From Cetorhinus maximus (taxonomy: Eukaryota), in the NCBI RefSeq assembly GCF_964194155.1, contig NC_135887.1, forward strand, positions 95,418,001-95,482,000: 64,000 nucleotides of DNA, written 5' to 3'. Shown here in pieces: positions 25,329 to 57,479 of the stretch. Position 1 is the first letter of the stretch; the number at the start of each line of letters is the position of its first letter. The notes below the pieces were generated by a model that saw only the letters and a list, made by a program, of their open reading frames with translations, did no database searches and was not told where the DNA came from. A program made the position numbers and the translations under genes.

Positions 25329-25418
25329 ATTGCTGAAGCTAGGGTGACACTACTTTTCTAATCTTGTGAATTTATCTGCAGAGAAAATTTAACAGATTTC
25401 AGCTGCAGCTTTATGCTA

Positions 25419-25630
25419 TAAAAGCAAAGTGCTGGAAATACTCAGCAGGTCAGAGTTAACATTTTGAGTCAAATAGACTTCTTCAGAACTGGATTCGACA
25501 ATTCTAAAGAACAGTCACAGTCAACTCGCACGGTAATTGTGTTTCTCTCTCCAGAGATACAGCCAAACCTGCTGAGCATTTCCATTCTACTTTCATTTGT
25601 ATTTCCAGCGTCTGCAATATTTTGCTTTTA
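25419..25630. mobile_element. Old fold-back PLE-terminus insertion
   Basis: Begins taaaagcaaa, ends tttgctttta, with two opposed decayed hammerhead motifs inside. Degenerate TSD ctgcagctttatgct / ttgcagctttttact. Confidence 0.7.
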
Positions 25631-25969
25631 TTGCAGCTTTTTACTGTCATCTGTATCACTGGTGATTTAAGAACGGTTTTTTAAGGGAAGTATTATCCTG
25701 AGGTCCCACTCTTGATTGGTATCCAGTGCCCCTTGCTGAAAAGTGTGCAGGTTGAATGAGAGAGGATCAGGCTCAGCTGTGATGCGCCATGTGGTTGAAA
25801 AACCCTTTTAAGATTTATTGGGCTGACAGTTGAAGAGTGGCTGCTGTTGGTGTTAATTTACTCTGTTAATTTACTTCATTGTTTAAAAAAAAGAAATTGT
25901 GAATGGTTCATGGTGATCATATTGCAGCGATGAGACTTGGATGCTTAAGTAAACAGCACCAAAATGGGC

Positions 25970-26460
25970 ATTTGTCCAAACTTATTCTTCTATTCTTTTC
26001 TCCCTCGCGTGCTTATCTAGCTCGCCCTTAAATGCATTTGTGCTATTCACCTCAGCTACTACTGATTGCTGTGAGTTCCACATTCTAACTGCTCTCTAGG
26101 TAGACATTGCTCCTAATTCTCTATTGGATTAATCGGTGGCCATCTTAGATTCATGATCCCTAGTTTTGGTCCCCTCCACAAGTGCAAATGTCATCTATAC
26201 ACCTATCAAATCTTTTCTAATTGTAAAGACCTCTATCAGATCACACCTCATTTCTTTCCAGGGAAAATGGACCTTAACCTGTTCAGTTTTTCCTGATGTA
26301 TAACCTTCAGTATCATCCTTGCAAAGCTTTCTTGCACCTTCTAGTGCCTCTATCTGCTTTCTCTAATATGGAGACCAGAACTGTACACAGGTACTCCAAC
26401 TGTGGTCTCACCAAGGTTCTATGCAAGTTGAACATAACCTCTTTGCTTTTCAATTCTATC
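25970..26460 (-). mobile_element. CR1 3' fragment
   Basis: ggagaccagaactgtacacag..tgtggtctcaccaaggttctatg = reverse complement of LVRPQLEY.VQFWSP; taaagacctctatcagatca. Confidence 0.75.
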
Positions 26461-27349
26461 TTTGTAGAAAGGCTTTGTTTGCTTAATTTGTTATTTTTTT
26501 ATAACCTAATCCTGTCATGTTTCTTCGCAGATTTTCAACTGCATCAGCTTTGGCTATTTTTTCTAGTTTTCTGGATAAATGTTAAGTCTTCACTTCAGGT
26601 TACTCTTGAAACATTTTTTGACTGTTCTTTTTTTCTGTCATCAGTTGGCAGTAGGATAGAGTTTTGGGAAATCTCTTGCATGCTTGTAATATGTCTGACT
26701 GACCTGTATAACTACAATTTTGATGCTGGTCATATTGGCATGCTGCACCCCTTTGGTGTTTGTCTCTGATGTGCTACTTAATTTTCGTAGGTTGTATATG
26801 ACTTTGGAAGCATTGTTCTATCCCCTTAATGTGCTTGTGTTTAAATGCTTGTGGAAATATTCCCCATCTCCTCCCTTTGCTAACTCAGAGGCCTTGAGGC
26901 CAATTGCCGCATTGCAACCTTTTGCCTTGTATTGGTTAACACTACATCCTGGGAATTAGATTTGTGATCTTCCTGATCTAATCACTCACTTAACCAGCTA
27001 AGCTATCTTGCAGCAGTGAAGTGTTTGTTTTCTTTTTGATCTGACAGGAAAGTTGATTCAACTTTGTTGAAAGTGCAGCTGCTCTTTGCTATAGTTCCTT
27101 CCCGTGTTCCCCTACATCCTACTTCCTGCACTAAGAGGATGGCAGCTGACCTGTTCCTAGGCTTCTGCAACATATGTATAACTTACTTAAGGCCCATCAT
27201 TATAGTTAAGTGCTTTTTTTTTTTACAAATGACCCTCCCTCCATCCATTTCTATAGCTACCAAAAATTTTGCCAACCCTTCACTAATGTAAGGAAAACAG
27301 GACTTGCCAAATCCCTCTTTTCCATGACGATTCTGAGTTGCTAGGTAGG

Positions 27350-27795
27350 GTGAGCGCTGTGCCTTCAGTTCAGCTCAGCTCTCGTCTCCAGAGCTAGAAG
27401 GTTGTGAGTTCAGGTCCCACCCTCAGATCTGAGCTAGGTTTTCACTTCAGAATAGCACTGGAACGCTGCATTGTCAGAGATGCCATCTTTTGTATGAAAC
27501 ATACTTTAATTCTTAAATAAAGAGCTAGCCTGACTTTAGGCAGATATGAAAGATCCCATGGCATTTGTTGAAGAAGAACAGGGAAATCTCTTGGTTTCTT
27601 GGCCAGCATTTGGTCCCCACCCACCTGAAAAATTTAACTGCACATTCACCTCAGAGTTTGAGAGTTGTTGCTGTGCATTCATTGGCTGCCACATTTGCCT
27701 ACAAGCCAAGAGTAGATACATTCAAAATTTACTTCAGCTTTGAAGTTCATTGGGGTGTCATGATGATATGAAAAGCATTTTATAAATGCAAGTTT
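27350..27795 (+). mobile_element. DeuSINE (SacSINE1/AmnSINE-like), near full length
   Basis: tRNA-like head (gaaggttgtgagttcaggtccc), central Deu domain (gctgcattgtcagagatgccatcttt..aaagatcccatggca..gaagaagaacagggaa), tail ending tataaatgcaagtt. Confidence 0.75.
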
Positions 27796-27984
27796 GTTCG
27801 TCCACTCATGCCTTAATATGTGATGCTTAACACATTAGCATTCTGGTGCACAAATGCCCAAGGTTGTGCAGAGTATCCTTAAAGTTTTGCAAATGTCTCT
27901 TTGCTTGCGCCATCTGATGTATTTTATGTTTTTATGTGGTTATAATCCTTGTTCATTCTCTTGCCATAAGTGTGCATTAGACCA

Positions 27985-28115
27985 TCGAAGAAGGGTCATA
28001 CAAACTCAAAACATTAACTCTGTTTTTCTTTCCACAGATGCTGTCAGACCTGCTGAGTTTTTTCAGCATTTTGTTTTTCTTTCAGATTTCCAGCATCCAC
28101 AGTTTTTTGCTTTTA
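27985..28115 (+). mobile_element. Isolated PLE terminus with decayed hammerhead and tail
   Basis: gaagaagggtcatacaaactcaaaacattaactc...gatttccagcatccacagttttttgctttt. Confidence 0.75.
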
Positions 28116-28379
28116 ACTTAGTGCGTTAAACCATGTTCTGTTTCACGCTTAGTAATGCCTTGTTAATCTCACTTTACATTGAGGGCTGACAACAGCATGA
28201 ATGAAAAAATGAGCACTGAATGGCTTTTGAAGCTTTCAAAATATATATACCTGTTTTCTATCATTTGTCCAAAATGATTCTCTTCACATGACTACCACTG
28301 AAAATCTATCCTATACTAGCAAAGTCTATCCATTGATATAATTACAGCGATGAGAAATTTCCGCTTGGTAGATTCCCGA

Positions 28380-28580
28380 CATTTGGATTTTGGAATTCCG
28401 CCATTCTAAATATGTCTCTGACTTCCGCCACCTCTGTAGTCAAAACGAGAATGAACAACTGAAAGCAAAAGTGTCAATAAAAACAGAAAAATAATGTAGA
28501 GTTGTGTTTGGTGGAGAAGTGAGCGTTGGAGAGGTAGCATTTGTGAGGAGCTACTCCTCCAATCCTAGATTCCGTCTCTC
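28380..28580 (+). promoter_or_regulatory. Possible decayed promoter upstream of the SERBP1/HABP4-like exon
   Basis: YY1-like ccgccatt (~28398), ETS-like acttccg (~28421), ccaat (~28559), residual CpGs. Motif-level evidence only. Confidence 0.3.
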
Positions 28581-28678
28581 TCATGCTGCTGCTCCAGCTT
28601 CTCCAGTGATAGTACCCTGCATCCCGCTCTTGCTGCTCCACCAGAGACAGAATCTATGATTGGAGGAGCAGCAAAGAC

Positions 28679-29085
28679 ATGAGAGAGCACCTGCGATTGG
28701 AGGTCGAGGAGCAGTTATTCTGGCCAGTCCCGCTGTTGCCTTGCAGGAGACTTCGGTTGCATCATCACCAATGACTTTGACCAGATGCTTGACAGCCAGT
28801 CTGATCCATTGGATGCCCTCCATAACACCAAAGACAAGAAGCTGAATAAGAAAGAGGGGAGAAGAGACAACCTGAAACCCAGTGCAGTGGCTGTGAGCGA
28901 GGGCCCCCAGCAGCTCCTTGGCCACTGCCGCCGGTAACACGAACAAAGCCGGGAGGAGAGAGTCTCAGCCTGGAAAATTCCTGCCAGTGGTGAGGCCAGG
29001 AGCAAGCCTGGGGGAGCCACTGTACCAAGGGAGCCTTCATGGACAGCAGCCAACAGAGCGAAGGCCCGCGACTCTGCAGTATTGG
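28679..29085 (+). pseudogene. Decayed exon 1 of a SERBP1/HABP4-family RNA/ribosome-binding protein gene
   Basis: ASPAVALQE / frameshift at ~28750 / FGCIITNDFDQMLDSQSDPLDAL, versus family motif [27 protein letters not shown]. After a further frameshift, NKAGRRESQ (HABP4 has GRRESQKERK). TAA at 28935 in the motif frame; GT donor at 29086. Confidence 0.85.
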
Positions 29086-30802
29086 GTATGGGAGGGGTTT
29101 ATATAAGCACCAATTAATGTTTAAAACACCACCCAGGGTTTGAATGTGTGCTCGGTTTCACTCTGCAAACCTGGGGTAGTGGAGAGGAGCAGGCAGGCAG
29201 GGGACTGGTAACTGAAACTTTATTCTGTTTTAAAAGTGTCTTGGTCATATCAAATGTGAATGTGGCTCAGGGTTTAATTTCTATAGAAAAAGAATCAGCA
29301 TCATCCGTGGCGTGTATAAAAATGCAGCATTTAGTGATTGTCCACAGAGTGGGGTTGGGGTGGGTGTCTGTACTGGCTTGAAGGGGTGGGGGGATCCTGT
29401 ACCAGACTGGAGTTAGAACTGGGGGTTTGGGGTAGGGTGGCCTGTACTGGGCTAGGGATGGAGCGACAGCTGGGCTGGGGTTGGAGTGGGGGTCTCACTG
29501 GGCCAGCCACTGCTCTGGATGCGCAAGGCTTTGTTTAAGAGTGGGACCCCAGTCCAAAATTGCCTTGACAACACCTGGGGACCTTTTCTTTGGTTTAAGG
29601 AAATCCCGTGCACCGTCCTTTTTGAGCATGGGACTGTGACCGACCAAAGTTATGCTTAAAATTGTAAGTGAGGAATAATATACTGTTGGGAAAAATGGCT
29701 ATTCTTATACCCCACAGTGTTGCATCAAACTGATACTTGAATGTGTTGATCCTTGGCTGCAGCATAGTTCCACTGAATCAGTCAAGATCAGTCCGTTCAA
29801 CAGAGACAAGTAATTGAAGCTGGGAACTTCCTGAGACTTGAGACTGGTGGATAGGTTGCTAGGCCTTCGGGATCTTCGCTGCTACCTTGAAGTAAATAAA
29901 CCTGTGGTGGTGATGGGTGGGGAGACAATGACAAGTAAGAAGAGAAAGGATCAACCATGTAAAAATTCATTTGACTTGTTACTAGCTTACATAAATTGCT
30001 TCTTATGCCTGTTTGATTTCTGTTCCATTGCGTCAAGTAGCTGGAATTTGAGATGAAGCTGATGTTAGTTTATTATTGTAAATTGGGAATTGCATTTGGA
30101 ATCCAAATTTGAGAGAGAATACTAAGGAAGAATCGTATCCTGAACTCATGTTAACTATTTTGAATGACGGGAACTGAATCACCTTGTCTTCATAGGTGAT
30201 GAACAGAGACTTTTCAGATGGTAACCGTAGCTCATGGGTGGTGACAATGTGCCCCCTGGCTGAAGCTACCTTGCCTATGATGTAGATAACCTAGCAAGGT
30301 CATTTTTTTTTGGTTAATATGGACTTCACCCTGTAGTATATGTACGAACTGCATGAAAAACAGAAATGTTGAAATACTGAGGTCATGGGTGATTTTATAC
30401 AAATACACTGGTCCACGATTTTGACTAATAGAAGCAAAGGGAAAGCTAATGTTTCTACCCACTTGAAGCCTAATAATTTCACCTATTTAAAGTGGCCTAG
30501 AAGCATTTGTATTTTAGTACAGATCAGAAAAAGTACTATGATTTTCAGGCCCCTTGCGCTGCAGTGATTTTGCTGCTTTGTGCTACCATGTGTACATAAT
30601 TGGCTTGTCACAAAAAATTTTCAGACCTTTTTGTCTTCAGCCACTCTCATCCCTGTAGTTATCAGTCCAGAATAATTCATTCACAAGTTGTATATTATAA
30701 ACTGAACAGTGTTTTGTCAGTATGTGGTGTATGATGTAAGATTTTGCTGATAACTTTGTTTTTTTTTGTTTATTCACATTATATTTGAGCATATGCTTGA
30801 TA

Positions 30803-33800
30803 CAGTAAGTCCTCATTTAACATTGGAGTTGCCTTCCTGAAAAATGAAACATTAAGCGAATCAGATTTTCCTATTACAACCAATGTAAAGGCTGTAGTTA
30901 GGTTCCAAAGGACCGTTATGTCAGAAAAAAATTAAAGCATTATATCCTGTAAGTTTAAATACTGTACATTGTTAAATTACTATATTTGTAAACAAATAAT
31001 TTTTAAAATAAAATAAATTAATAATACAAAAGAAATATGTCAACTACTTACTCCCGCTTGCTGCCTCTCCTGCTGGCTGTCTCTTCCACTCCTTGCCCCT
31101 CCCTACTGCTCTGTCACCACCCCTACCGCTCCCCAACCCCCTGGCTCACTCCCAATCATGCTACCTGACCCTCCTGGTCACTGCTGACCCTCAGCATGCC
31201 AACCCTCCCACTTACTGCTTCCCTCTCCCTTGCTGCGATTGAGGGCTTGGGAGATGAGAGTCAGGAAGCAACCAACAGAGCTTTTGAATTGCAGGGTCAT
31301 GGAGGTAAGCTACAGGCAGGAGTGTCAGTGGCGGGAGAGGTTACTCCAAAATGACACAAATCATGTCACGTGACCCTACGTCACAGTTAGCATGAAACAA
31401 CATTAATGCAAATAGTTCCTTATTCTTTCACGGGATGTGGGCATCACTGGCTGGGCCAGCATTTATTGCCCATCCCTAACTGCCCTTGAGAAGGTGGTGG
31501 TGAGCTGCCTTCTTGAACTGCTGCAGTCCATGTGATGTAGGCGCACCCACAGTGCTGATAGGGAGAGAGTTCCAGGATTTTGACCTGGCAACAGTGAAGG
31601 AACGGTGATATATTTCCAAATCTGTATAATGAGTGGCTTGGAGGGGAACTTCCAGGTGGTGGTGTTCCCATGTGCTGGCTGCCCTTGTCCTTCTAGATGG
31701 TAGTGGTCATGGGTTTGGAAGGTGCTGTCTAAGGAGCCTTGGTGAGTTCTTGCGGTGCATCTTGTAGATGATGCACACTGCTACCAGTGTTCGTTGGTGA
31801 AGGGAGTGAATGTTTGTGGATGGGGAGCCAGTCAGTCGAGCTGCTTTGTCCTGGATGGTGTCAAGCTTCTTGAGTCTTGTTGGAGCTGCCTCATCCAGGC
31901 AAGTGGAGAGTAATCCATCACACACCTGACTTGTGCCTTGTAAATGGTGAACAGGCTTTGGGGAGTCAGGAGGTGCGTTACCACAGGATTCCAAGCCCCT
32001 GACTTGCTCTTGTAGCCACAGTATTTATATGGCTAGTCCAGTTCAGTTTCTGGTCAATGGTGACCCCCCAGGATGTTGATAGTGGGGGATTCAGTGATGG
32101 TAATGCCATTGAATGTCAAGTAGCGATGGTTGGATTCTCTCATGTCTGGCACTTGTCTGGCGCAAATGTTACTTGCCACTTGTCAGGCCAAGCCTGGATA
32201 TTGTCCAGGTCTTGCTGCATTTGGACATGGACTGCTTCAGTACCTGAGGAGTTGCGAATGTTGTTGACCATTGTGCAATCATCAGCGAACATTCCCACTT
32301 CTGACCTTATGATAGAAGGAAGGGCATTGATGATGGTTGGGCATAGGACACTACACTGAGGAACTCCTGCAGTGATGTCCTGGAGCTGAGATGACTGACC
32401 TCCAACAACCACAACCATCTTCCTTTGTGCTAGATATGACTCCAACCAGTGGAGAGTTTTACCCCTGATTCCCAATGACTCCAGTTTTTCCAGGTCTCCC
32501 TGATGCCACACTTAGTCAAATGCTGCCTTGATGTCAAGGGCGGTCACTCTCACCTCACCTCTGGAGTTCAGTTCTTTTGCCCATATTTGAACCAAGGCTG
32601 TAATGAGGTCAGGAGCTGAGTGACCCTGGCGGAACCCAAACTGAGCATCAGTGAGCAGGTTATTGCTAAGCAAGTGCTGCTTGACAGCATGGCTGATGAC
32701 CGGGATGACCCCTTCCATCACTATACTGGTGATCAAGAATAGACTGATGGGGCGGTAATTGGCCAGGTAGAATTTGTCCTGCTTTTTGTGTACAGGATAT
32801 ACCTGGGCAATTTTTCACATAGCCGGGTAGATGCCAGTGTTGTAGCTGTACTGGAACAGCTTAGCTAGGGGCGCAGCAAATTTTCAGTACTATTGCCGGA
32901 ATATTACCAGGGCCCATAGCCTTTCCAGTATCCTGTGCCTTCAGCTGTTCCTTGATATCACGTGGAGTGAATCGAATTGGCTGAAGATTCGCATCTGTGA
33001 TGCTGGAGACCTTCAGAGGAGGCCGAGATGGATCATCAGCCAAAAGTGCCGAGTGAAAGATTGTTGCAAATGCTTCAGCCTCATCTTTCGTACTGATGTG
33101 CTGGGCTCCCCCTTCATTGAGGATGGGGATATTTGTAGAGCCGCCTCCTTCAGTGAGTTGTTTAATTGTCCAACACCATTCATGACTAGATGTGGCAGGA
33201 CTGCAGAGCTTAGATCTGATCCTTTGGTTGCGGAATTGCTTTGTTCTTTCTATCGCTTGCTGCTTCTGCTGTTTGGCATGCAAGTAGTCCTGTGTTGTAG
33301 CTTCACCAGGTTGACACCTCATTGTTAGGTATGCCTGGTGCTGCTCCTGGCATGCCCTCCTGCACTCTTCATTGAACCAGGGTTGATCCCCTTGGCTTGG
33401 TGGTAATGATAAAGTGAGGGATATGTCGAGCCATGAGGTTAGAGATTGTGGTTGAATACAACTCTGATGCTGCTGATGGCCCACGATGCTTCATGGTTGC
33501 CCAGTCTTGAGTTACATAATCTGTTCCAAATCAACCTCATTTAGCACGTTCATAGTGTCACACAATATGATGGCGGGTGCTCTCAATGTGAAGACGGGAC
33601 TTCATCTCAAGGACTGGTCACTCCTACGATACTGTCATGGATAGATTCATCTGGAGCAGGCAGGTTTGTGAGGATGAGATCAAGTATGGTTTTCCCTCTT
33701 ATTGGTTCCCTCACCACCTGCCACAAGGCTAAACTCAAATACTGGCCCCATTAAAGATACAATGCTAAATTGAAATGACTTAAAATGGGGCCATTTAAAG

Positions 33801-33813
33801 TGAGGACTTACTG
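30803..33813. mobile_element. Non-autonomous Tc1/mariner-pogo (Tigger-like) DNA element with an internal LINE insertion
   Basis: TA|CAGTAAGTCCTCATTTAA ... TTTAAAGTGAGGACTTACTG|TA: terminal inverted repeats and TA TSD. Confidence 0.85.
31420..33725 (-). mobile_element. Family B LINE, 2.3 kb 5'-truncated ORF2
   Basis: DQPWFNEEC, GKAMGPGNIP, QFGFRQGHS, LDIKAAFD, AGVPQCSVL, MFADDCT, KWQVTFAPDKCQ; stops and frameshifts present. Confidence 0.92.
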
Positions 33814-36109: not shown

Positions 36110-36262
36110 GAACCATATCATCGCAAATGAATTCTTCCTTGGGCTGTGTACTAAGTTTCATTGAAATCTGTTCATTAGTTTTTGAGATATATTGTTTACA
36201 GACAGACTAACAAACAGGAGCAAAAACATTACCTCCAACCAATTTCAGTGGCGGAGATAACT
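36110..36262 (+). mobile_element. Non-autonomous Helentron/Helitron-like end fragment
   Basis: aagtttcattgaaatctgttcattagtttttgagatat, acagacagac microsatellite, terminal hairpin ttacctcc...ggagataa. Architecture resembles fish non-autonomous Helentrons (from recall). Confidence 0.55.
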
Positions 36263-36289
36263 AAAATGGAAGCCAGGATGATGGGCAGT

Positions 36290-36630
36290 TTAGTGGGGCT
36301 AGGGTTGAGGGAACAGGAGGTGGATTCCATATTCAAGGTGAGCTTGGAGTAGGCTTGTTAGGGATAGGAGAGAAACTAATGATGGATATAAGTTCAGGGC
36401 TAAGCTTGTGGAAAACCTTTTGAGATGGTTTGTCCCAGTGGGCTAGGCGAAGGGAGGGCAGAGGGTCCTGATTGGACAGTCTCAAACTCAGTTACAAAGA
36501 AGTCGATGAGCTCCTCGCACTTGCTGTTGGGAGGCGAGGGTGTAGAAGAAAGGGGAGAGTGGTTTAAGTAGACAGCAGTTGGAAAAAAGAAGCTGGGGGG
36601 TTATCTTTGCATTCCAGGCTGATCCTGAAT
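36290..36630 (-). mobile_element. L2 ORF2 internal fragment
   Basis: Reverse-complement match to 47760-48000 (ctcctcgcacttgctgttgg; ttatctttgcattccagg). Confidence 0.6.
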
Positions 36631-39600: not shown

Positions 39601-39951
39601 CAGGGACCAACAGTGTATCTCCTTAACCAGTGATTGAAAGATTGAGGAAGATACAGTAACAATAGAGAAGGAGGACGAATTTGTCCAAATCGGGTTCAAT
39701 AACTTGTATTTACATAGCTCCTTTAATAAAGCACTCCAAGGTGCTCCAGAGAAGTTTGATAAAACAAAACATGACACTAAGCCACATAAGGGGATATTAG
39801 GGCAGATGACCAAAAGTTCAGTCAGAGTTAGGTTTTAAGGATAATTTTACAGGAGGAAAATGAGGTCGAGAGGTGGAGAAGTTTAGGAAGGAAATTCCAG
39901 AGCTTAGAACCGAGGCAGCTGAAAGCAGGAGATAATCATGAGGCCAGAATT

Positions 39952-40178
39952 CACCTAGAAGTCACTCACCATCCTGACTTGGAAATATATCGCCATTCCT
40001 TCACTGTCGAATGGTCAAAACCCTGGAAACCCCTCCCTAACAGCGCTGTGGGTGTACCTACAGCACCTAGACTGCAGCGGTTCAAGAAGGGAGCTCACCA
40101 CCACCTTAAGAGCAGCTATGGATGGGCAATAAATGCTGGCCCAGCTAGCGAAGCCTACACCCCGTGAGTGAATAAAAC
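39952..40178 (+). mobile_element. Family B LINE 3' end
   Basis: Matches 4130-4345; agaatt repeated on both sides. Confidence 0.85.
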
Positions 40179-40187
40179 AAGAATTAG

Positions 40188-41800
40188 GGGTATGTGGAAC
40201 ATTCCTTGTTCCAGTCCTACTCCGGCCCCCTCCCACAACTCTTTCTCCGGTACATCGATGATTACTTCGGTGCTGCTTCATGCTCTTGTCGGGACCTGGA
40301 AAAATTTATTAATTTTGCTTCCAATCTCCACCCCTCCATCATTTTCACATGGTCCATCTCTGACACTTCTCTTCCCTTCCTTGCCCTCTCTGTCTCAATT
40401 TCTGATGATAGACTGTCCACCAATATCCATTACAAGCCTACCGACTCCCACAGCTACCTCGACTACAGCTCCTCACACCCCGCTTCCTGTAAGGACTACA
40501 TCCCATTCTCTCAGTTCCTTCGCCTCCGTCGCATCTGTTCTGATGACACTACCTTCAAAAACAGTTCCTCTGACATGTCCTCCTTCTTCTTTAACCGAGG
40601 TTTTCCACCCATGGTCGTTGACAGGGCCCTCAACCGTGTCCGGCCCATCTCCCGCGCATCCGCCCTCACACCTTCTCCTCCCTCCCAGAAACATGATAGG
40701 GTCCCCCTTGTCCTCACTTATCACCCCACCAGCCTCCGCATTCAAAGGATCATCCTCCGCCATTTCCGCCAACTCCAGCATGATGCCACCACCAAACACA
40801 TATTCACTTCACCCCCCCGGCGGCATTCCGTAGGGATCGTTCCCTCCGGGACACCCTGGTCCACTCCTCCATCACCCCCTACTCCTCAACCCCCACCTAT
40901 GGCACCTCCCCATGCCCACGCAGAAGATGCAACACCTGCCCCTTTACTTCCTCTCTCCTCACCGTCCAAAGGCCCAAACACTCCTTTCAAGTGAAGCAGC
41001 ATTTCACTTGCATTTCCCCTAACTTAGTCTACTGCATTCGTTGCTCCCAATGCGGTCTCCTCTACATTGGAGAGACCAAACGCAAACTGGGCGACCGCTT
41101 AGCAGAACACCTGTGGTCTGTCCGCAAGAAAGACCCAAACCTCCCTGTCGCTTGCCATTTTAACACTCCACCCTGTTCTCTTGCCCACGTGTCTGTCTTT
41201 GGCTTGCTGCATTGTTCCAATGAAGCCCAACGCAAACTGGAGGAACAGCACCTCATCTTCCGAATAGGCACTTTACAGCCTTCCGGGCTGAATATTGAAT
41301 TCAACAACTTTAGATCTTAAACTCCCTCCCCCCATCCCCACCCCGTTTCTTCCCCCTCCCTTTTGTTTTTTTCAATAATTTATATAGATTTTTCTTGTCC
41401 CACCTATTTCCATTATTTTTAAATCTACAACTAATACCTTGTCAGTCTTTCCACCCCACCCCCACTAGAGCTGTACCTTGAGTGTCCTGCCATCCATTCT
41501 TAATTAGCACATTCTCTTAGATAATATCACCACCTTCAACACTTCTTTGATCCTTTTGTCTGTGACATCTTTTGATTCTCTGCTCCTATCACTGCTTGCT
41601 TGTCCCTACAACCACCCCACCCTCAACTTCTCTCCCCCCACCCCACCCCCCACCTTAAACCAGCTTATATTTCACCCCTCTCCTTACTACACTCAGTTCT
41701 GTTGAAGGGTCATTGGACTCGAAACGTCAACTCTTCTCTTCTCCACCGATGCTGCCAGACCTGCTGAGTTTTTCCAGGTAATTCTGTTTTTGTTTTTGTT
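40188..41800 (+). mobile_element. Penelope-like element (Neptune-like), 5'-truncated
   Basis: RT FLRYIDDYFG, HYKPTDSHSYLDYSSSHP; frameshift at the poly-C near 40812; Cys linker; GIY-YIG LVYCIRCSQCGLLYIGETKRKL. 9-bp TSD aagaattag (40179-40187, 41801-41809). Confidence 0.93.
41695..41732 (+). ncRNA. Minimal hammerhead ribozyme motif (variant core CUGUUGA)
   Basis: AGUU-CUGUUGA-A-GGGUC-auug-GACUC-GAAA-CG-UC-AACU. Confidence 0.62.
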
Positions 41801-46049: not shown

Positions 46050-46700
46050 AAGGCCGCATACTCATTGGAATATGAGTCAGATGGGGTAGCGGAGCAGAGT
46101 GATCTAGGGATTGCTGTCACACTTATCACTAATGGTAGCAGTGCAGGTCAATAAAACCATTGAAAAAAAATATCAAAGCACGGTCTTTCATTTCTGGAAA
46201 GACAGAATAGGAAAGCAGAGAAGTTATGTTCAACTTGCATAGAACCTTGGCTGGACTACACTTGGCGTACTGTGCACATTGCAGGTTTCCAGGTTGTAAA
46301 ATGTGTAGAAAGGCACAGGATATTACTAAAACTACCAGGAAAGACTGAATGGATTGAAGCTCTTGTTCCTGGAAAGGAGAAGGCTGAGGGGTAACCTGTT
46401 AGAGATCTTTAAGATTATATAAGAGTTTGATAGGATAGAGGTAGAGACAATGTTCCTAGTTGTCGGAATGAGGGGATTAAAACTGGAAGCCATGAATATA
46501 TGATGGCTTGCCAATAGATACAGTAAGGAATTCCAGGGAAATTTTTTTTCAAACCAGTGTGGTTATAATGTGGAACGTGCTACCACAAGGAATTGTTGAG
46601 GTGAATAGCATTGAGTAATTTAAGGAGAACCTAGATAAGCATATGAAGCAGAAATGAATAGAGGGATATGCAGACATACTTAGGATGGGAGGTGGCTTGG
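46050..46700 (+). mobile_element. CR1 3' fragment
   Basis: gatctaggga..; aggctgaggggtaacctgttagagatctttaagatt; atgtggaacgtgctacca. Confidence 0.7.
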
Positions 46701-46949
46701 TTTTGTTAAAAAAAAATTCTCATTCTTTCATAGGATGTGGGTGTCGCTGGTAAGGCCACTATTTGTTGCCCATCCCTAATTGCCCTTGTGACGAGCATAA
46801 ACACCCACATGGACCTGCATTGAGCAAATTGTCCTGTTTCTGTGCTGTGCATTCTGTGTAATTCAGTGTTAGTTAAAGGACACACGTGAACATTTGTGCC
46901 TGTCAACTACTACAGCCATTCATAGCCAATTATAGCTGGTCCACATAAA

Positions 46950-49525
46950 GCATCACTGTGTTCCGCTCTCCTCAGCCAAAGCTGTTCACTATTTTAGGGT
47001 CATCTGGAATGCACAGGTAATCCTCGGATACTCTTTTTCACTACAGTCAGGCCCAAATTTTCCGGACTGCAGATTATCAGATTCCATGGGAATTGTCTGG
47101 GAAGCTTGAACTTCCTTTGGGTGATTTCCCTGCTTCCCGGTAACCTCTGAAAAAATCTTCAACTCCGAGTTAGAGTCTGAGAGTTCCAACTTACTTACCT
47201 GGATAGTTACCCAGGAAATATTATACATTATGCATTAAAATTGTAGTCTAACTCCTGGGTAGCTATACAACTGACACCCCTCCCCCCACCACCGACTACA
47301 CCCCTTCCCCCGACTCCCCCTCTCTACCCCCCAACTTCCCGCTGACCTGACTGACCTCACTCCGCCCCGCCCCGACCGTACCACCCGATTCCCATCCCGA
47401 CCCCTGACCTCACCACACTGCCCACCTTCCACCCTACCCTCTTACCCACTTACCTTACCCACCCTACCCCTTACCCACCTATACATTCACCTATTCACTC
47501 ACCCATTCAATCAGACACTTGTACAGTAATACACTGAAAAGCTGTTTTAAATGTCCCAGCTTTTCAGTGTGTTAGTGAGCATTCACCAGATTATGGGAAC
47601 TAGTGCTGTTAAAAAGATGTGGCTTGGCTTCCCTCAGTGATCCAGCGCTACGTGGAAGTAATTGGATTGGCTCTGGCGTGGCGCAGCAAAGTAGGTGCAG
47701 AGCGGCAATTCGACAGTGATTGCCGCTTCTTGGAAGATTTGGGCCACAGTCTTCTGAGCTCTCTCTCCATGCCTCTTTTACCTTCACCACTAATAATAAG
47801 TGCGAGGATCTCACTGACTTCTTTATCATTAAGGTTGATGCCATCCATTCAGCTGCCCCCATTGTTTCCCTCCTTTCCTCTCACCCAACAACTGAAACTT
47901 CACCTAAGGTTCTCCCATGCTCTGGCTCTGAAATCACACCTTTCTGTATTCTCTCCTATTTCCATCCGTATCCTCTCCGAGCTCACCTTATCCTGTGGAC
48001 CCACCTCTTGCTCCCTTGACCCTATTCTCACCAAACCATTGACCACTGAGCATCCTTACCTGGCCCAATATTAGTTTACTGTCCTCTTCCTTTCAAATCT
48101 GTCACCAAAACCCTTCTTCAAAAAACCCACCCATGACACATCTGTTGTTGTAAACTACCGCCCCATCACCAACCTCCCTTTCCATTCCAAGTCCTTGCAT
48201 GTGTTATCGCATCCCAAAATCTGAGCCCATCTTTCCCACAAACTTGAATCTCGAACCCTCCAATTGGACTTTCATCCCTGCAACAGCACTGAATCAACCC
48301 ATTTCAAAATCAGAAAAAAAACTCCTCTCTGACTGTGACTTGGTAAACTATCCTTCCTCATCTTTCTTGATCTTTCTGCATCCTTTGAGATGGTTGACCA
48401 CATCATCTTTCTTTTAACGCCTCTCCTCTGTTGAGCAGCTGCTTGAGATCGCCTTCGCCTGGTTCCATTTTTATTTATCTATTGGTAGCCAGACTATTAC
48501 TAGCAATGGCTTCCCCTCCTGCTCCCACAACATTACCTCTGTAGTCCGCTAAAGATTAATCCTTGGTCTCCTTATCTTACTTATCAAACATCTGTCTCTC
48601 AGAGACATCATCTGAAAATACACTGTCAGATTCCACATGTTCTCTGATGATACTGAGTTCTACTTTACCACTACCTCTTTCAACTTCTTCACTGTCCCTG
48701 ATTTTTTTAAACATCTTGTGTGACATCCAGTACGGATTTGGTCCCCATCACCAACTCCATTCCCCAGTCACCGACTCCATCCCTCTCCCTGGCTGTGACT
48801 GTGGCTGAATCAGACCATTGGAAATCCTGATTCTAAGGTGAGCTTCAGACTACATATTGCACCATCACAAGCAAACTCAATTTCCATCTCCGTAACATTA
48901 CCCGACTTTGTCCCTGCCCCAACTGATCTGCTACAGAAACCTCATCCATCCATTTGTTACCTCCAGACTTGACTATTTTAATGCCTCCTGGCTGGCTCCT
49001 ATCTTCCACCCTCCAAAAAGCTTGAACACATCAAACACTTTGCTGCTTGTATCTTAATTTACACCAAATCCCATTCATCCATCACGACTGTGCTCGTTGC
49101 CTTACGTTGGCTCCCGGTTAACCAGCATCTCAATTTTAAAATTCTCATCCTTGTTTTCAAATCGATCTGTGGTATCACCCCTCCCTATCTTTGTAACCTT
49201 CTCCAGCCCTAAACCCTCAATCTCTGCTCCTCTTCCAATTTTGGCTGCTTGTGCATCCATGATTTTAATTGCTCCACTGTTGTCAGCCCTGTCTTCAGTT
49301 ATCTGGGCCCTAAGCTCTGCAATTACTCCCCCGATCTCTCCATTTCTCTTGCTTTCTTACCTCCTTTAAAACGCTCTGAAAAACTACCTCTCTGGCCAAG
49401 CTTTGGTCAGCTGTCCTGATACCTCCTTATGTGGTTTGGTATTAGATTTTGTTTGATAACACTCCTGTGAAACACTTTGGATGTTTTACTATGGTAAAGG
49501 TGCTATATAAATTAAGTTTGTATTG
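46950..49525 (+). mobile_element. L2 ORF2 fragment and 3' end, interrupted by a MITE
   Basis: PTSCSLDPILTK, NYRPITNLP (aactaccgccccatcaccaacctccc), LRWLPVNQHLNFKILILVFK, tail ggtgctatataaatt. Confidence 0.85.
47050..47745. mobile_element. MITE, PIF/Harbinger-like
   Basis: TIRs ggcccaaattttcc / ggaagatttgggcc (13/14). 3-bp flanks tca/aca. C-rich simple-repeat core. Host L2 continuous across it. Confidence 0.7.
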
Positions 49526-50249
49526 TAGCTAAAGTATTATAGCCATTGTTCATGCAAATATTTACATTTGCATTGATATCAGCATTTGAATCCAACTGTG
49601 TAGATTTTTGCCTTTTACTAAATTTGCTTGTCCTAGTTTGTGACTAGCCCACTTATCAACAGAGTCATTTCTAGCATGAAAAAGATTCAAACAAGAATCT
49701 CATTGGCCCAAAATTATTCGATGCTATATGAGCTGTGGCATGCTAAATGAAAGTTAGATGCTACTCTGTTTTGCAAGGTTTAAATTTATTAGCACCTTAT
49801 TACAACATATTGGAAAGGAATTATGGCATTGAAACAGAGCATTCAGCCCAACAGGTTCATGCTGGTGTCTATTGTCCACATGAGCCTCCTCCCATTCCTC
49901 CTTTTCTAATCCCACATATGTTTCCTGTATTTTGTCGCAGTCCTCCACTGTATTAAAATCAATGACTCTGCATTAACTAAAGGTTTGGATACTAAAACCT
50001 AGTTTTCTCTTTTGTCTCTAGTAATCTGTTTACTGAACATCTGTTCTTAAACAGGTATTTTTAGTTAAGTTTCCGATATCGATCCTTCATTCACAACTTG
50101 AGCTGTGAAGTTTGACTGACTAATTTATGTTTTGAACACTAGAATAAACGCTAATTCTTTTCCACTTCATTTCACCACTGCTCCGTAGGACAAGCTCAGG
50201 TGGCATGGGCTTTGAGGCCGCATTAATTAAATATTGGAATCTCCCACTC

Positions 50250-50780
50250 ACAGCTGTAAGCCCTCACGAGTCAGGAGTATGATGAAGTACTCTCCCCTTG
50301 CCTGGGTGAGTACAGCTCCAACAACACTCAAGGAGCTCAACACCATCCAGGCCAAAGCAACCTGCTTGATCAGCACCCCATCAACCACCTTAAACATTGT
50401 CCCCCTCCACCACTGGCACAGTGGCAGCAGTGTTTACCATCTACAAGATTCAGTGCAGCAAATCACTGGGGCTCCTTTGAAAACGCTTTCCAAACCCATG
50501 ACCTCTTCCACCTCGAGGAACAAGCACAGAAGATGCATGGAAACACCATCACTTGCAAGTTTTTCTGAGTCACATACCATCCTGACTTTGAACTATATTC
50601 TCATTCCTTCACTGCCGCTGGGTCAAAATCCTATAACTTACTCCTTAATAGCACTGTAGATGTACCCATATACAGTTGACTACAGTGGTTCAAGAAGGTG
50701 GCTCAACGCCATCTTCTCGAGGGCAGTTTGGGATGAGCAATAAATGCCGGTCTATCCAGCAATGTTCACATTCCAGAAAC
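50250..50780 (+). mobile_element. Family B LINE 3' fragment
   Basis: VRSMMKYSPLAWVSTAPTTLKELNTIQAKA. Confidence 0.85.
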
Positions 50781-51018
50781 CGACATCACACCTGAGCACT
50801 TCAGGTTGAATATTCTTTTCATTTAGATTTGAGAAATGACAAACACACATAAGAGTATACATACAAGCTCCTGGATGATGAGTTCAGCGTCGATTGTTGT
50901 CCTTCCTTGATGAGCTGCAGCCCTGATTCCTCCTCCTCGCTACCCATCAGTAAACAGAAAGGTGTTTTGCTTTCTCTCTTTATAAACGGTCGTATATTTC
51001 CCAACCCCTCAGTTTTGG

Positions 51019-51585
51019 TGTGATCCAATTTCTATTAATAACACTACAGCAGATTTGAGATAGGGTAAACTCAGAGGGCTAGTTTATTTGCGCCCACTCA
51101 AAATGTGGGAGGGGGTGTCACTCTGTAGCCCCCCTGTGCGTTCATACAATAAACAAGGGATAGAGAAAGAAAGATTTACAAGGCAAAGACCACAGAGCAA
51201 AGAATTATTTTTTCACATGAGTCCAGAATCAAAAGTCCAATGGTGAATTCCTTCACAGAGGCAGACAGGCTGAGCTGATGCTGGATAATTCACTTTTCCG
51301 GTAGAGTTGACTTCCACAATGAGAGGGGCACGCAAAAATGGATTAGTCTAGTAGGCAATGGTATAAAAGTTCAGAAGTCCCAGTAGAAACAGTGTAGATA
51401 TGGGCAGGCATTCAAACCTGGACAGAGCCCCTCTTCTGAGCTGCTGCTTGCTGAATGGAAGATGACGGACTACTTTGCAATACAGGAAGGCAGTATGGCT
51501 GGTTCTCCCAGGGTTTTGGCGGGTGGAGGGGGGAGTCTTGTCACATGACTCTACCAACACTCCTTCGGCTTTGACAATCATCACA
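51019..51585 (-). mobile_element. Possible LTR-like element
   Basis: TGTGAT...ATCACA inverted termini, tttatt near 51083. No TSD. Confidence 0.3.
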
Positions 51586-51599
51586 GATCTATGTAAGAA

Positions 51600-54030
51600 A
51601 GGGACTTTTTAAGCGCACTATCAGCGAGGGGAGACATTGGCCTGAGCGAGACAGAGGCCGAGTGAGTATTATTTGGGAATTTGGTTCAAAGTGGGAATTC
51701 GGTGCATAGGGGAAAAGAGGTGCTTTAGGTAAGGTTTACTGCAAGAAGTGTGACTTAGAATAGAGCTGGGTAATTAAGGGAGTTAGGAAAGGAAAGGAGA
51801 GCCTTGCTCTTTTGCTTCCTGCTTTCTAACTTTGTCAGCCTTTGGGAATTGGTTGTACTCTGCTACAGGAGAAGAAGCTAGTTATTTGGTGAGTATCTGG
51901 TAAGTGACTAAGATTTATTCTATCCCTAAGGTTCAAAATAGTCTAGCAACTGATGGGAACATTAATAAAATAAATAAAAACAAAAGTTAAATATATAATT
52001 GAGTAAAATAATTAGGTAGTTAATTAGAACACATTAAGGATGTCAGGACAGGTGATGTGTCACAGCTGCAGCATGTGGGAGCTCCTGGATGCCAGATTGA
52101 TCCAAGGCAAACACGTCTGCAGTAGCCGTTTGAAGTTTGAGCAGCTTCAGCTCAGAGGTTGAGCTGGAGGCTAAACTACAGACACTGTGGCGCATCAGGG
52201 AGGGGGAAAGTTACCAGGGTTCTTTGTACCAGGAGGCAGCCACACCTCTTAGGACAGTGGCTTCTCATTTGGTTAGGGACAGGAGAGTGTGACTGCGAGT
52301 GTGGCAGGCAAGGGGACTCAGAGGGCAGGAGCACAGGAGCCTCAGCCTTTACTGAGCTGAAGCTGTTCAAACTTCAAACAATTACTGCTGACATGTTGGC
52401 TCTGTTAGTTAATGATGGTATTAACACAATAGAGGGGGATGACCTAAGTCCAGGAAACCGGGATGTGGAAACAGTTTGAGTAGAGGTGGGAAATGGTAAA
52501 GGCAAGAAGTCGCTTGTGAGAGTTGTGTACAGACCCCCTAACAATAGCCATGTGGCAGGGTTGAGCATAAAAGAAGGAATAATCGCAGCTTGTCAGAAAG
52601 GCATGGCAATAATCATGGGAGATTTTAATTGACATATAGACTGGAAAAGTCAGATGGACAAAGATAGCCTAGGTGAGGAGTAAATTAAATGTTTTCAGGA
52701 TAGTTTCTTAGAACAGCATGTTCTGGAGCCAACCAGAGAACAGGCTATATTATATTATACCTGGTATTGAGCAATGAGATGGGAGTAATTAATAATCTCA
52801 TAGTGAAGGCACCCCTCGGTAGTAGCGCCAATAATATGATTGAATTTTACATTCATTTTGAAGGAGAGAGTAGTGGGTCTGAGTTTAAGTTTTTAAACTT
52901 AAATAAGGGCAATTATAAAGGCATGAAAGCTGAGCTGGCTAAAGTGAATTGGCAAATTAGTTTAAAGGATAGGTCAATAAAGATGCAGTGGCTAATATTT
53001 AAAGGGATATTTCGGAATGCACAGAATAGATACATTCCAATGAGTAAGAAAACATCCAAGGGATGGACACACCATCCGTGGTTAACTAGGAAGGTTAAAG
53101 ATAGTATCGCACTTAAAGAAAAAGCATATAATTGTGCAAAGGCAGGTGGCATGTCAGAAGATTGGACAGAATATAAGGAACAGCAAAGAATGACTAAAAG
53201 ACTAATAAGGAGGGAAAAATTAGAGTATGAGAGAAAGCTAGCCAGAAATATTAAAACAATAGTATAAGTTTTTATAATATTTAAAAATGAAAAGTTAGCA
53301 AAGTGAGCATTGGCCCTATAGAAAGTGAGCCTAGAGAATTGATAATGGAAAATAAGGAGATGGCAGATGAATTGAACAGGTACTTTGCATTAGTTTTCAC
53401 CATAGAGGATACAAGTAACATCCCATAAGCAGCTATAAACCAGGAAATGGAAGTGGGAAAGAAAGTCAGGAAAATTAGTCACCAGAGAAGTGGTACTGAG
53501 TAAATTGTTGGAACTGCGGGCTGATAAGAGCCCGGGTCCTGATGGACTTCATCCTAGGGTTTTAGAAGAAGTGCCTAGTGAGATAGTTGATGCATTGGTT
53601 TTAATTTTCCAAAACTCCCTAGATTCAGAAAGGTCCCTTAGATTGGAAGATAGCAAATGTAACTCCATTATTCAAAAAGGGATGGAGACAGAAAGCGGGA
53701 AACTACAGGCCAGTTAGCTTAACACCTGTTGTATGGAAAATGTTAGAAGCTATTATTGGTCTTCCGGGCCAGTATTGATCCCTCAATCCCCACCCCACAC
53801 ACTGTGGCACCTGGCTGCCCCCTCATCGGTTGCACAGTTTCCCAATCTGCTGCTGGGTGGATCCCCCCACCCCGATTGCCATAGAAACCCACAAAATTGT
53901 GGACACTGCATTGTTGAGTGTATTCAAGGCTGAGATAGATAGATAGATTTTTGATTTCTGTGAATCAAGGGATATGGGTTGGAAAGTGGAGTTGAGGCAG
54001 AAGATCAGCCATGATTGTATCGACCAAAGG
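51600..54030 (+). mobile_element. CR1 LINE with 5'UTR and two large internal deletions
   Basis: ORF1 start ~52040 (MSGQVMCHSCSMWE). Jump at ~52375 into the endonuclease (ALLVNDGINT, VVYRPP, MGDFN, PLGSSANNMIEF), then KSPGPDGLHPRVL, then jump after ~53757 to the 3'UTR (53905-54030). Confidence 0.88.
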
Positions 54031-54049
54031 CACTCTGTGCCTGATTGAG

Positions 54050-54480
54050 GCACTAGATATTGGGAAGGGGGGCTTGCTGAGAGCCACCTCCCTGCCTTTG
54101 CTGCTGACCCTTGTGCACCCTATCCCTGCAAAACCTCCCCCCCACCCCCCACACTACCACCACCACCACCAACCATTACTTACCTGTGGCCTGGTTTGTT
54201 CAACATTCCTGGGACTCTGGTGTCTTCCCTTCTGGCAGCAGTAACAGTCTCCCCAGAGGCGCTGCTGAGCACAAGAGCTGCTCGCTCTGATTGGCTGGCT
54301 GGCAGCTTTCAGTCGGCGAAACTTCTGTGCCCCCCTACACCTACCGCCCGGGTCTTGATTCCAGGGGAAGACCTGCTGCTGGCCTCACCACTGCCTGATT
54401 GGCATGTGGTTCAGTGGGCCTTCCGAAAAAAGAGAGTGCGGGGTCTCCCTGGCTCTCCAGCCGGCAGGTAAGACCTCCAC
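54050..54480. mobile_element. GC-rich MITE-like internal fragment
   Basis: ggcgctgctgagcacaagagctgc..ctgattggctggc resembles the interior of shark non-autonomous DNA elements (from recall). No clear termini. Confidence 0.35.
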
Positions 54481-54845
54481 TTGGAGGTTAGGTATCTATC
54501 TGAGGGGGAGCAGATCTGATCTGAGCACTATTCTCACTATCTGAGCACCTGGCTAGATGGCTGGCTGCAGACTTACCTGATTAGAGTCTCTGAGATGCTT
54601 TTGTACAAAATGGACACTTGTAGAAGAGATTTTCTATGAAGGGGAGAAAATAAGGATCAAATCCTATAAAATATTAGCTACTGCACTTATGGCATGCCAT
54701 TTCAAAATATGTAGATATTACTTGTACACAACAATCATCCATTTATGAACCAGTTATTCAAGCTGCAACTTTATAATGCTTGTGAATAAATTGAGTACTT
54801 ATTTATAGAAAAATGCTTTCTCAACAGCACACAATGCAAACTTCA

Positions 54846-54914
54846 TTGTGTACTTTAGTAAATGGTCTGCTTATATTTGTGTACTTTAGAAAATGGCCTG
54901 CTTATATTTATGTA
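54846..54914. repeat. 31-bp tandem duplication
   Basis: ttgtgtactttagtaaatggtctgcttatat x2.2, 2 mismatches. Confidence 0.9.
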
Positions 54915-56747
54915 GATCAGTGCTGGTGACCTGTTTCAAGGTACTAGCTTGGAGGAATAGTATTGTAAGGGAGCTAAATCATCCTCTGCAATGGTGGTTA
55001 TTTGCCCCACTGGGCACTTCAAGTTCAATTGTATATGTTTTACCCCTCTCTCTCTCTATTAGATGTAAATCAAGCCCTTGACAATATATCATCGTTCAAA
55101 GAGACTAGAAGGCCCCTTCCAGTACTCTTGCTCCAAGGTAGTACTTTATGTTTGAAATGTTCTTGTATTTTGTAGGAAAACGTTTAGGCTCCGGAGAATT
55201 TTAATAGGCTTTTCTTTTAATTTTCGTAAGATTCTGAAGGTGGAATTTCAGAACATTTAATGGATGTTTTCCTTTCAGGGGAGATATTAGATGCATCTCA
55301 ATGGATTTAAACTTGGACCAATCCCATCCTGTTAAAATACGGTTCTGAAGTTACTTACCAATGTGCTCTATGCTCCCTTTTAGGCAACATAACAAGAATC
55401 TATGGAAATATTTGTTTTAAAAATGAATGAACAGTGATTGTAGATTTACAGTGCTTTGATAGCATTGGTATATATGGTTTTGGTTTGGTGTGTGAAGGAC
55501 AAAGATAACTTCATGTTTTGAGGAATGTTGAATTGCCCATTAAAAACGTTGTTGCAACTTAACAGCTTACATTAGTTCTGCACAGTAATTCTGTGAAGGT
55601 TATGTAGCCAGGGGGACTTGGTCCAAATTCATTATACTGCACATTCTAGAATAGGAACCACTTCCTAGTGTGCTAATTACACAGCAGCAGTTATAAAGAA
55701 TAGCCATTAGGTTGAGATCAATTCATATTGCAGCAGCACATGTTTGTAATAGAGGCGGGTTTCCAGTTAGGAATGAAAGTATTGGAAATGGATACATGTG
55801 GCCACTGATTTGGTTTGTTAAAGATATAATGGCTGGGATTTGGCCATTTTTTGGCCATCTGACCTAATACCTCCTTAAGTGGCTTGATGCCATACTTTGC
55901 TTTATAATGCTCCTGTGAAATGCCTTGGGATGTTTCATTACATCAAAAGCGATAAATAAATATAAGTGTGACGACAGCAAAACAGATGGGAACTTCTTGA
56001 CCGAGTACATGTTAAAAGTGTGGAGAGTATTCCATCATGCTGCTGACTTGTGCCTTGAAGATGGCGAACAGGTTTTGGTCAGAATCCTGGAACTACCTCC
56101 CTACTATCACTGGATGCACCTACACTAGAAGGACTGCAAGGTTCACAAAGGTGACTCACCCCAACCTTCTTAAATGCAATTGGGAGTTGGCAGCAAATGC
56201 TGTCCTTGCCGGTGATGCTCGCATCCCATGAACAAATGGAAAAAAAGCCTTGATAATGAGAATCATTTGACCATGGAATATCTCGCACCCGATGCTGTCC
56301 TTGCTCGTCGTCCAGAAATCCACGATTGTAACTGCAATAGTTGAACTATTTTCCCCTCTTTTTCCTCTGTACCTGTAAAACATCGGGTTGCTGAGACCAA
56401 CTGTAGCGTGCTCTGTCCCCCTGGACACTGGCTGAAATCGCCAGCTCTGCACACATCTGGACCAGTGGGGAAGTGCAAGGAAAGTATTTTTAAACATGTA
56501 CCCTGTCAAGAAATTCCTACAAAAATTAGACCTGTCAAAATTCCACAAACACATCGAATACATGCTCCACAAACAAATCAGAGGAATGGGAAAGTATTTA
56601 CCATCTACGTTTTAACTGGCACATTTTTATAATCTTTACTCCAACAGCAGTATCTGCATTTTTTGACAGTAAATGGTGGGGTTGTTGCTAGAAAGTGAAT
56701 GCTCAGGTTACAATTGCTGCACCTTCAAACAGATTAAATGTAAATTG

Positions 56748-56903
56748 AAAAGCAAAATACTGCAGGTGCTTGAAATCTGAAATAAAAGGTGCTGAAAATG
56801 CTCAACAGGCCTAGAGTTGTCTGCCAGAGTTCATGACCTGAAACGTTAACTCTGCTACTCCACAGATGTTGTCAGACTTGAGTATTTCCAGCATTTTGCT
56901 TTT
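56748..56903. mobile_element. Old fold-back PLE-terminus insertion
   Basis: aaaagcaaaat...attttgctttt ends, internal gacctgaaacgttaact hammerhead half. TSD aaatgtaaattga (56736-56748) / aaatctaaattga (56904-56916). Confidence 0.75.
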
Positions 56904-57479
56904 AAATCTAAATTGAATCTACTGAGTATTTACTTGTTTCAGCTCTAGAATTGAAGAAAAACATATATTTTTAGCAAAGAAGTTTGTTGTGTAGCATTCT
57001 TAAATCATCCAGCCACATAGAGTTGGAAATAATTATATTCCCCTGATGCTTGAGGAAACACTGATGTTGAGCCATGTAGATAAAGGAGATCCCGGGCTTG
57101 GTCAATGATGGGTTAGTTGATCTTGGTTATGGGGTAGGGTGGTGAGGAGGGGGTGGTTGGAGATGAATCTGGTGCACTTGGGCAGCTCCTGCAACTTCCC
57201 TGATATCCTTGGGCTAGGGAAGCAAGAAACATCACGTTCTTGATTACAATCCGCTGACCTACCCTGAAATGTGCACCTGGCGGGACAAGATTAGGCATGG
57301 TTGGGCATATTTCATGATGAATAGCTTAGTGTTATTCAATTTAACTTTGTACAATTTGGGTGAGGTGCCTAAAAAAATGAAGAAAATAGGGAGGGTCATT
57401 GGAGGTGGAAAACATACGTGCTGGCAGCTGAGAAAAGTCCAGTCCAGACCACATATAAGAGGAAGTGAGATGATAGCAT

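Follow-up and report, generated by a model that had tools for sequence, protein, structure and literature searches.

The window analyzed here is a stretch of 64,000 nucleotides from the 3.99-Gb genome of Cetorhinus maximus (NC_135887.1, positions 95,418,001 to 95,482,000; C9:95.42-95.48 Mb). It contains three short hairpins, E1 (2909-3165), E2 (25418-25631) and E3 (56749-56902), each of which consists of opposed termini of one repeat, a Penelope-like element (PLE), as a preliminary description of the locus had recognized. In each hairpin one arm is tailed and starts at site A of the terminus and the other is tail-less and starts at site B, which lies ~35 nt further into the terminus. The tailed arm of E1 (2909-3055) has the PLE sense on the minus strand and carries a hammerhead-like motif, and the tail-less arm (3058-3165, plus strand) is 99% complementary to it across 102 nt. 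E2 has a tail-less arm (25418-25490, minus strand) with an internal deletion that ends at the run-off hotspot described below and an old, decayed tailed arm (25503-25631, plus strand). E3 is composed of a short tailed arm (56749-56814, minus strand) and a tail-less arm (56831-56902, plus strand). All three hairpins lie between the copies of a target-site duplication (TSD), for which a length of 13-15 bp had been given in E2 and E3 and which falls into a 14-bp register with identities of 14/14 in E1 (2895-2908 and 3166-3179, exact), 12/14 in E2 (25404-25417 and 25632-25645) and 13/14 in E3 (56735-56748 and 56903-56916). The left copy has a purine at -3 in E1 and E3 and is preceded by AGC in E2; the right copy is followed by GGT in E1 and GTC in E2 and has a pyrimidine at +3 in E3.

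E2 and E3 read AAAAGCAAA...TTTGCTTTT at both ends and had been likened to elements with terminal inverted repeats (TIRs). The letters are real, but the ends map to different positions of the terminus profile (38 and 1 in E2, 2 and 38 in E3) and the ends of E1 are unlike each other. The terminus holds two similar A-rich blocks ~35 nt apart, and E2 and E3 look like TIR elements because of this degenerate direct repeat within the terminus.

The source repeat is an endonuclease-positive PLE. Tandem copies (L098 and L117) define a 3.3-kb unit, and the youngest subfamily possesses many uninterrupted frames of 924 codons. One 7.3-kb head-to-head insertion with a 14-bp TSD (L306; G000:C1:140436700-140445200) contains two identical intact open reading frames (ORFs) of 2,772 nt that encode 917 aa from the ATG, with the reverse transcriptase (RT) and GIY-YIG protein intact. 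The presence of many equal-scoring intact copies suggests recent activity. In its match to PF00078 (E 1.8e-6), the RT of the L306 protein falls slightly short of the curated cut-off, and the DD of its YIDD motif is invariant in 67/67 sequences. The protein model has a pLDDT (predicted local distance difference test) of 92 and its top 12 fold matches are all telomerases; a sequence search of the PDB gave 0 matches. The C-terminal endonuclease matches PF01541 at residues 820-855 (E 4.9e-4, under the cut-off) and keeps VY..YIG in 66/67 sequences, with conserved cysteines before it. A Pfam scan of broken ORF pieces missed this nuclease domain, which the intact ORF revealed. Among 544 protein homologues, the closest named one is 69% identical and comes from Chiloscyllium. 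A dimer prediction for residues 1-260, made without the alignment, scored 0.00 and is not counted either way.

The features of an endonuclease-positive PLE found here are a single ORF with a telomerase-like RT, a C-terminal GIY-YIG domain, a one-ended tail of 30-40 bp (A ends are most frequent at -8 and B ends at 24-29) and partial tandems of the pseudo-long terminal repeat (pLTR) type, which are direct in L098 and L117 and inverted in 99/166 closed insertions. The terminus of L306 folds with the stem I, stem II and core order of a hammerhead and a variant core (CUGCUGA/CUGUUGA), making it a putative ribozyme; minimal hammerheads are described in PMC4209133. An Rfam scan of the whole window at gathering thresholds gave 0 matches and no hammerhead, and an E-value scan of E1 gave sub-threshold hairpin models only, again no hammerhead. 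The templates in L072, L104 and L199/L200 are retrozyme-like, with short direct-tandem units of ~250-630 bp in which the ORF start is joined to the terminus. The direct-tandem templates of L072, L104 and L199 were inserted in a two-ended manner too.

Head-to-head pairs of this terminus are abundant. A 38-mer from the terminus tail has 4,060 exact matches in the genome and a 40-mer from the terminus body has 20,991; the first 100 of each, all on one chromosome (C1), were taken, and 95 of the former and all of the latter were fetched. Among the first 100 of the 20,991 body matches there are 14 head-to-head pairs within 400 bp and none in the other three orientations, with 0.11 expected per orientation. 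Termini are dense in this genome (about 100 per Mb), which could bring unrelated insertions together by chance, but the one-sided excess of head-to-head pairs and the single TSD that surrounds both arms leave chance adjacency with a negligible probability. Position-picked DNA (39 of 40 requested 10-kb stretches, one being absent; 390 kb) contains 40 arms, 7 short head-to-head pairs, all of them tailed/tail-less, one tail-to-tail pair and 0 matches to the reversed control. The resulting density of 18 short pairs per Mb (7-37) corresponds to about 72,000 genome-wide (29,000-148,000), and the very large class surmised from the window is supported. Three short pairs in 64 kb are not unusual at this density (P=0.11).

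The architecture was counted in 170 young insertions from C1, which were typed automatically. Head-to-head combinations in which a tailed arm meets a tail-less one (AB) account for 97, two tailed arms (AA) for one and two tail-less arms (BB) for one; 47 are direct tailed copies, 19 direct tail-less copies, one is of another kind and four are open. In the tail-blind subset, the counts are 68 AB, one BB and no AA. Two-ended insertion is thus the majority outcome of the autonomous PLE (99/166 closed insertions), and 66/98 two-ended insertions are shorter than 400 bp (median 256). A second set of 16 insertions of the youngest subfamily, picked from ORF matches, ranges in size from 57 bp to 7.6 kb, and 15/16 are AB with a TSD of 12-16 bp, which measures 14 bp in 8 cases. 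The insertion left out of this TSD statement (L314; G000:C1:14985200-14994500), whose own flank is inverted, is an 8-kb PLE palindrome that is tail-less at both ends, with the flank perfectly inverted for at least 602 bp. It is either an assembly artefact or a later rearrangement. Older subfamilies contain 21 short pairs in 43 loci, of which 20 are tailed/tail-less, and the TSD is 7-15 bp in the 10 pairs where it could be called.

The hairpins had been taken as a possible non-autonomous, retrozyme-like family mobilized by the PLE protein. High copy number, a size mode near 200-260 bp and two junction types that each occur twice are what a self-propagating, non-autonomous family of the retrozyme or MITE (miniature inverted-repeat transposable element) kind, with a fold-back master, would produce. 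The junctions between the arms, which had been named as the feature to check, speak for an integration by-product: 86 simple pairs have 84 junction kinds, and both of the repeated kinds lie at the end hotspot. Since nearly all junctions are unique, the hairpins are the product of integration and not a MITE or a self-spreading family. For E2 and E3, no whole-element relative above 76% was found among 40 candidates scored for each. The ends of the hairpins lie at different terminus positions and are not true TIRs, and lengths are continuous from 57 bp to 7.6 kb under one TSD rule, and the arms are opposed, whereas non-LTR (non-long terminal repeat) retrozymes consist of direct tandem units. A self-propagating family is therefore very improbable, and the hairpins are almost certainly the smallest form of the commonest PLE insertion. 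The 56 junctions inspected comprise 25 that overlap, 9 that are flush and 22 with filler.

A candidate family of six near-identical pairs on C22, which would also have favored a self-propagating family, was rejected. The copies share 98-100% of their flanks and are therefore segmental duplicates. The segmental duplication itself (L122-L127; C22:3.3-5.4 Mb) has at least six copies at a spacing of 0.3-0.6 Mb.

The inner ends of the arms gather at one place. Forty-nine of 230 lie at terminus positions 128-135, the 5' edge of the predicted hammerhead, and only 5/230 lie at the predicted hammerhead cut, where there is no gathering. The hotspot (132-134 within 128-135) has a TATA-like run ~30 nt upstream and an initiator (Inr)-like sequence at the site, as compared with the general TATA and Inr consensus sequences. 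A check for spliced templates in 39 arms showed that the hotspot is not followed by any consistent upstream exon. If the hotspot is a transcript start, the size mode of 200-260 bp would arise when both copies run off at the 5' end of the RNA, just before the hammerhead. Apart from the hotspot, 9/230 arm ends lie at unit positions 533-574, near the 3' end of the ORF; these belong mostly to direct copies without a TSD.

Two-ended and direct insertions differ in their TSDs, with the fold-back copies having the longer ones, as had been thought. A TSD of at least 10 bp is present in 91/98 two-ended insertions vs 27/66 direct ones (p=4e-13), and one of 13-15 bp in 75 vs 12, with medians of 14 and 12. 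In a null made from mismatched flanks, 10 bp was reached in 9/300 cases and nothing longer was seen. The mode of 14 is common to short (28/65) and long (17/31) pairs. The TSDs are true duplications: for repeat-borne targets that have a copy elsewhere, the flanks, as they stand in another copy of the repeat, overlap by the length of the TSD for 13/14 insertions.

The target is dyad symmetric, RRC-N14-GYY. The motif was first spotted in 24 exact 14-bp TSDs, and in 23 held-out TSDs a purine at -3 and a pyrimidine at +3 are each found in 23/23, with A at -7 in 17 and G at +1 in 13. Across 45 insertions with a TSD of 14, the purine at -3 is present in 44, the pyrimidine at +3 in 42 and both in 42; the youngest subfamily has 8/8 for either position at this TSD length, and E1, E2 and E3 all fit the motif. 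Averaged over loci, the half-site score is highest at 14 nt. Averaging of two orientations can create a false palindrome (PMC10547254), but the symmetry seen here is not such an average: the tail set the orientation of the rows, and both halves occur within single sites.

The window also contains PLE copies that are not hairpins. Direct tail-less copies with short TSDs of 6 and 9 bp, which had been set against the fold-back elements, are present at 22938-23458 (plus strand) and 40187-41796 (plus strand, 1.6 kb), respectively. Unlike these two, a direct tailed stub at 27987-28115 (plus strand), previously overlooked, has a 14-bp TSD (27972-27985 and 28121-28134, 12/14) adjoined by GTT. A 1.5-kb direct copy at 5607-7087 (minus strand) is tailed and 5' truncated; it has no clear TSD, with an 11-bp repeat 14 bp off the junction. 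An old isolated terminus fragment lies at 24386-24453 (minus strand). In 21 direct copies with a TSD of 8-12 bp, a purine occurs at 14+3, counted from the primed end, in 16/21 (p=0.013) and at the TSD start in 11/21. This is weak support for the view that direct copies result from the 14-nt cut of the two-ended ones, followed by trimming at one end. The proposal of a distinct pathway with longer TSDs is supported with regard to priming from both nicks, but the two-ended pathway is the majority one and the direct copies look, weakly, like its trimmed version.

The arms of a pair appear to come from one template. Within insertions they differ at 26/314 diagnostic positions, compared with 55% between insertions (96/97 pairs scored). 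At the other positions the arms differ by 4.4% within and 6.1% between insertions, and therefore the arms were not homogenized later. In L072 and L104 a private rearranged junction is repeated in both arms. Two protein-RNA particles that each bring their own RNA and act independently, at the two nicks of one site or successively, would account for discordant arms, which are found in 6/78 informative pairs, and for the exceptional combinations. The single AA case (L038) differs at 4/4 diagnostic positions and has no TSD, and there is one BB pair with a 14-bp TSD (L224). However, direct copies use both sites (47 A and 19 B), yet 68/69 tail-blind pairs are AB (p=2e-19 vs one half), and the haplotypes of the arms agree at 92% of diagnostic positions. 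The involvement of two particles is accordingly quite unlikely. That pairing is so strictly AB is an argument for a coupling of the two primings.

A shared haplotype is also expected under a snap-back model, in which one cDNA (complementary DNA) or antisense template serves as its own primer after folding back, and the resulting intermediate loses one tail when it is resolved by the endonuclease. Self-priming and resolution by the endonuclease have been offered as readings in PMC3846280 and PMC8557442. Some junctions are small palindromes, the overlaps at 25 of the 56 junctions fit this model as well, and in 35/86 pairs the arms differ by no more than 10 nt in inner length, likewise a prediction of snap-back. 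Among the other pairs, where the difference is >10 nt, 32 have the longer arm on the tail-less side and 19 on the tailed side, and the tail-less arm exceeds the tailed one by up to 2.4 kb. The pairs with a longer tail-less arm keep the 14-bp mode (16/32) and the concordance (6/82 diagnostic positions differ). In such pairs the tailed arm is too short to have been the template of the tail-less one, which in turn has no tail to pass on, and both ends were therefore primed on a sense template. Snap-back is unlikely, though a little less so than the two particles. At terminus positions 76-81, 7/86 tailed arms end vs 1/86 tail-less arms in the C1 sample. These stops are possibly stalls of the A copy on meeting the B copy.

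The reading that we favor is priming from both ends of a symmetric cut. The PLE protein, probably as a dimer, would nick both strands 14 nt apart at the symmetric target and copy one RNA from both nicks; judged from genomic sequence, this is the probable course of events. Nicks 5' of GYY on both strands would leave 14-nt 3' overhangs, each of which would prime reverse transcription at site A or site B of one RNA. Priming at both nicks is highly probable, and the holding of one RNA by the dimer is the reasonable, if less secure, choice. The A copy would displace the B copy or come after it on the shared RNA, and the two cDNA 3' ends would then be joined head-to-head through microhomology or filler. 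Failed priming at one end, together with trimming of the free overhang, may give a direct copy whose TSD is trimmed or lost, although the signal for this is weak. The two-ended products are predicted to be dead ends. In vitro, the PLE protein of Anolis, a predicted dimer, cleaves and extends both strands and uses two start sites, between which the tail lies (PMC11167929).

Besides the discordant pairs, the BB pair and the arms of equal length, several points weigh against this reading. The 170 insertions come from a single chromosome and were typed automatically, and a few complex ones are mistyped (e.g., L205 and L232). A single source locus that produces two RNAs would give concordant arms too, and the letters of the run-off site also fit a 3' splice site. 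The nick spacing derived from the motif is noisy at individual loci (8/38 at 14, range 6-18), and only the mean peaks. C at -1 is present in only 21/45 and G at +1 in only 28/45, and TSD calling biases both positions. The signal of a fixed stagger in direct copies is weak, and 39/66 have no TSD of at least 10 bp. Bulk data for the Anolis protein show no difference in start sites between strands, and its cut motif is ATT rather than GYY (PMC11167929). Every step beyond the target symmetry is inferred from genomic sequence.

Several further observations concern the window. An empty-site comparison for E1 is limited by the contig of a related organism, which ends 150 bp before E1; contigs of the same species reach into E1 from both flanks and may be the assembly's own source. 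Several microRNA (miRNA) hairpin models score at the center of E1 (3006-3099), all below threshold. Young pairs could yield double-stranded RNA if transcribed. A second abundant repeat family, which looks like the end of a CR1-type LINE (long interspersed nuclear element), occurs at 3684-4340, 18273-18787, 31397-32068, 39950-40173, 50265-50784, 59000-59163 and 61176-61410; its depth in read sets is far greater than that of the PLE.

Each hairpin is in itself an ordinary, dead copy. Tens of thousands of them would be misannotated as MITEs or miRNA-like hairpins. They resemble MITEs in being short, hairpin forming and numerous, with a TSD and a symmetric target. Unlike MITEs, they have neither identical TIRs nor a common interior, they derive from a retroelement and their sizes are continuous. 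Crocodilian Chompy repeats may be similar PLE palindromes; a literature look-up gave no confirmation of this. Non-LTR retrozymes (bioRxiv 10.64898/2026.07.22.740005) are likewise PLE derived, noncoding and hammerhead bearing (putatively so here), but they are direct tandem units whereas the hairpins are inverted and unique.

The architecture is known from other PLEs. An inverted copy, a one-sided tail and a TSD are reported in PMC3846280, PMC8557442, PMC2377424 and PMC8969392. The Penelope element of D. virilis (PMC2377424) and Pen2a of Adineta (PMC3846280) have an inverted 5'-truncated pLTR and a 30-40-bp tail at one end, as do the units in the legend of Fig. 2 in PMC8557442. In the available portions of PMC2377424, PMC3846280 and PMC8557442, units of endonuclease-positive PLEs share with the present insertions the head-to-head copy, the one-ended tail, the single TSD, 5' truncation and partial tandems. 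The TSD of Pen2a is 8-10 bp (PMC3846280), compared with the 14-bp mode here. In those portions the cause is left open or self-priming with endonuclease resolution is proposed, and the origin of the inverted ends and one-sided tail is called unresolved in PMC8557442. Beyond the published units as described there, the present data add a count of 170 insertions, strict tailed/tail-less pairing, a dyad target, one template and a tail-less arm that is often the longer. A literature search, which did not cover subscription papers and repeat-database notes, found no publication in which PLEs are said to have a dyad target, a fixed stagger or strict pairing. The architecture is thus known but the geometry apparently has not been described.

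The Poseidon element of Anolis (PAc) is alike in its RT and C-terminal GIY-YIG domain, the hammerhead in its terminus (putative here), its two tail-bounding starts and the cutting and extension of both strands, for which ribozyme cleavage is unnecessary in PAc (PMC11167929). The start sites of PAc lie within the ORF instead of just upstream of the ORF as here, and the main text does not connect its findings with inverted copies, the length of the TSD or a symmetric target (PMC11167929). The genomic record supplies figures that can be tested in this existing in vitro system (PMC11167929), namely RRC-N14-GYY, a stagger of 14 nt, a single template and, in each event, one start at A and one at B.

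The twin priming of LINE-1 is similar in that both target ends prime on one RNA, which results in an inversion inside the TSD. In LINE-1 the position of the second priming is internal and varies, and the outcome, with pieces that do not overlap, is a minority one. Here, the starts are fixed and adjacent (the second near site B), the arms overlap and the product is the majority one. If true, the closest mobile relatives of telomerase retrotranspose with a geometry that is neither that of LINE nor that of R2 priming. On a narrow balance of probability, PLE integration would be a two-fold symmetric, transposase-like reaction of a dimer whose two subunits reverse transcribe one RNA from two dedicated start sites, in which inverted ends and the one-sided tail are normal and direct copies are half-failed, with no counterpart in other target-primed retroelements.

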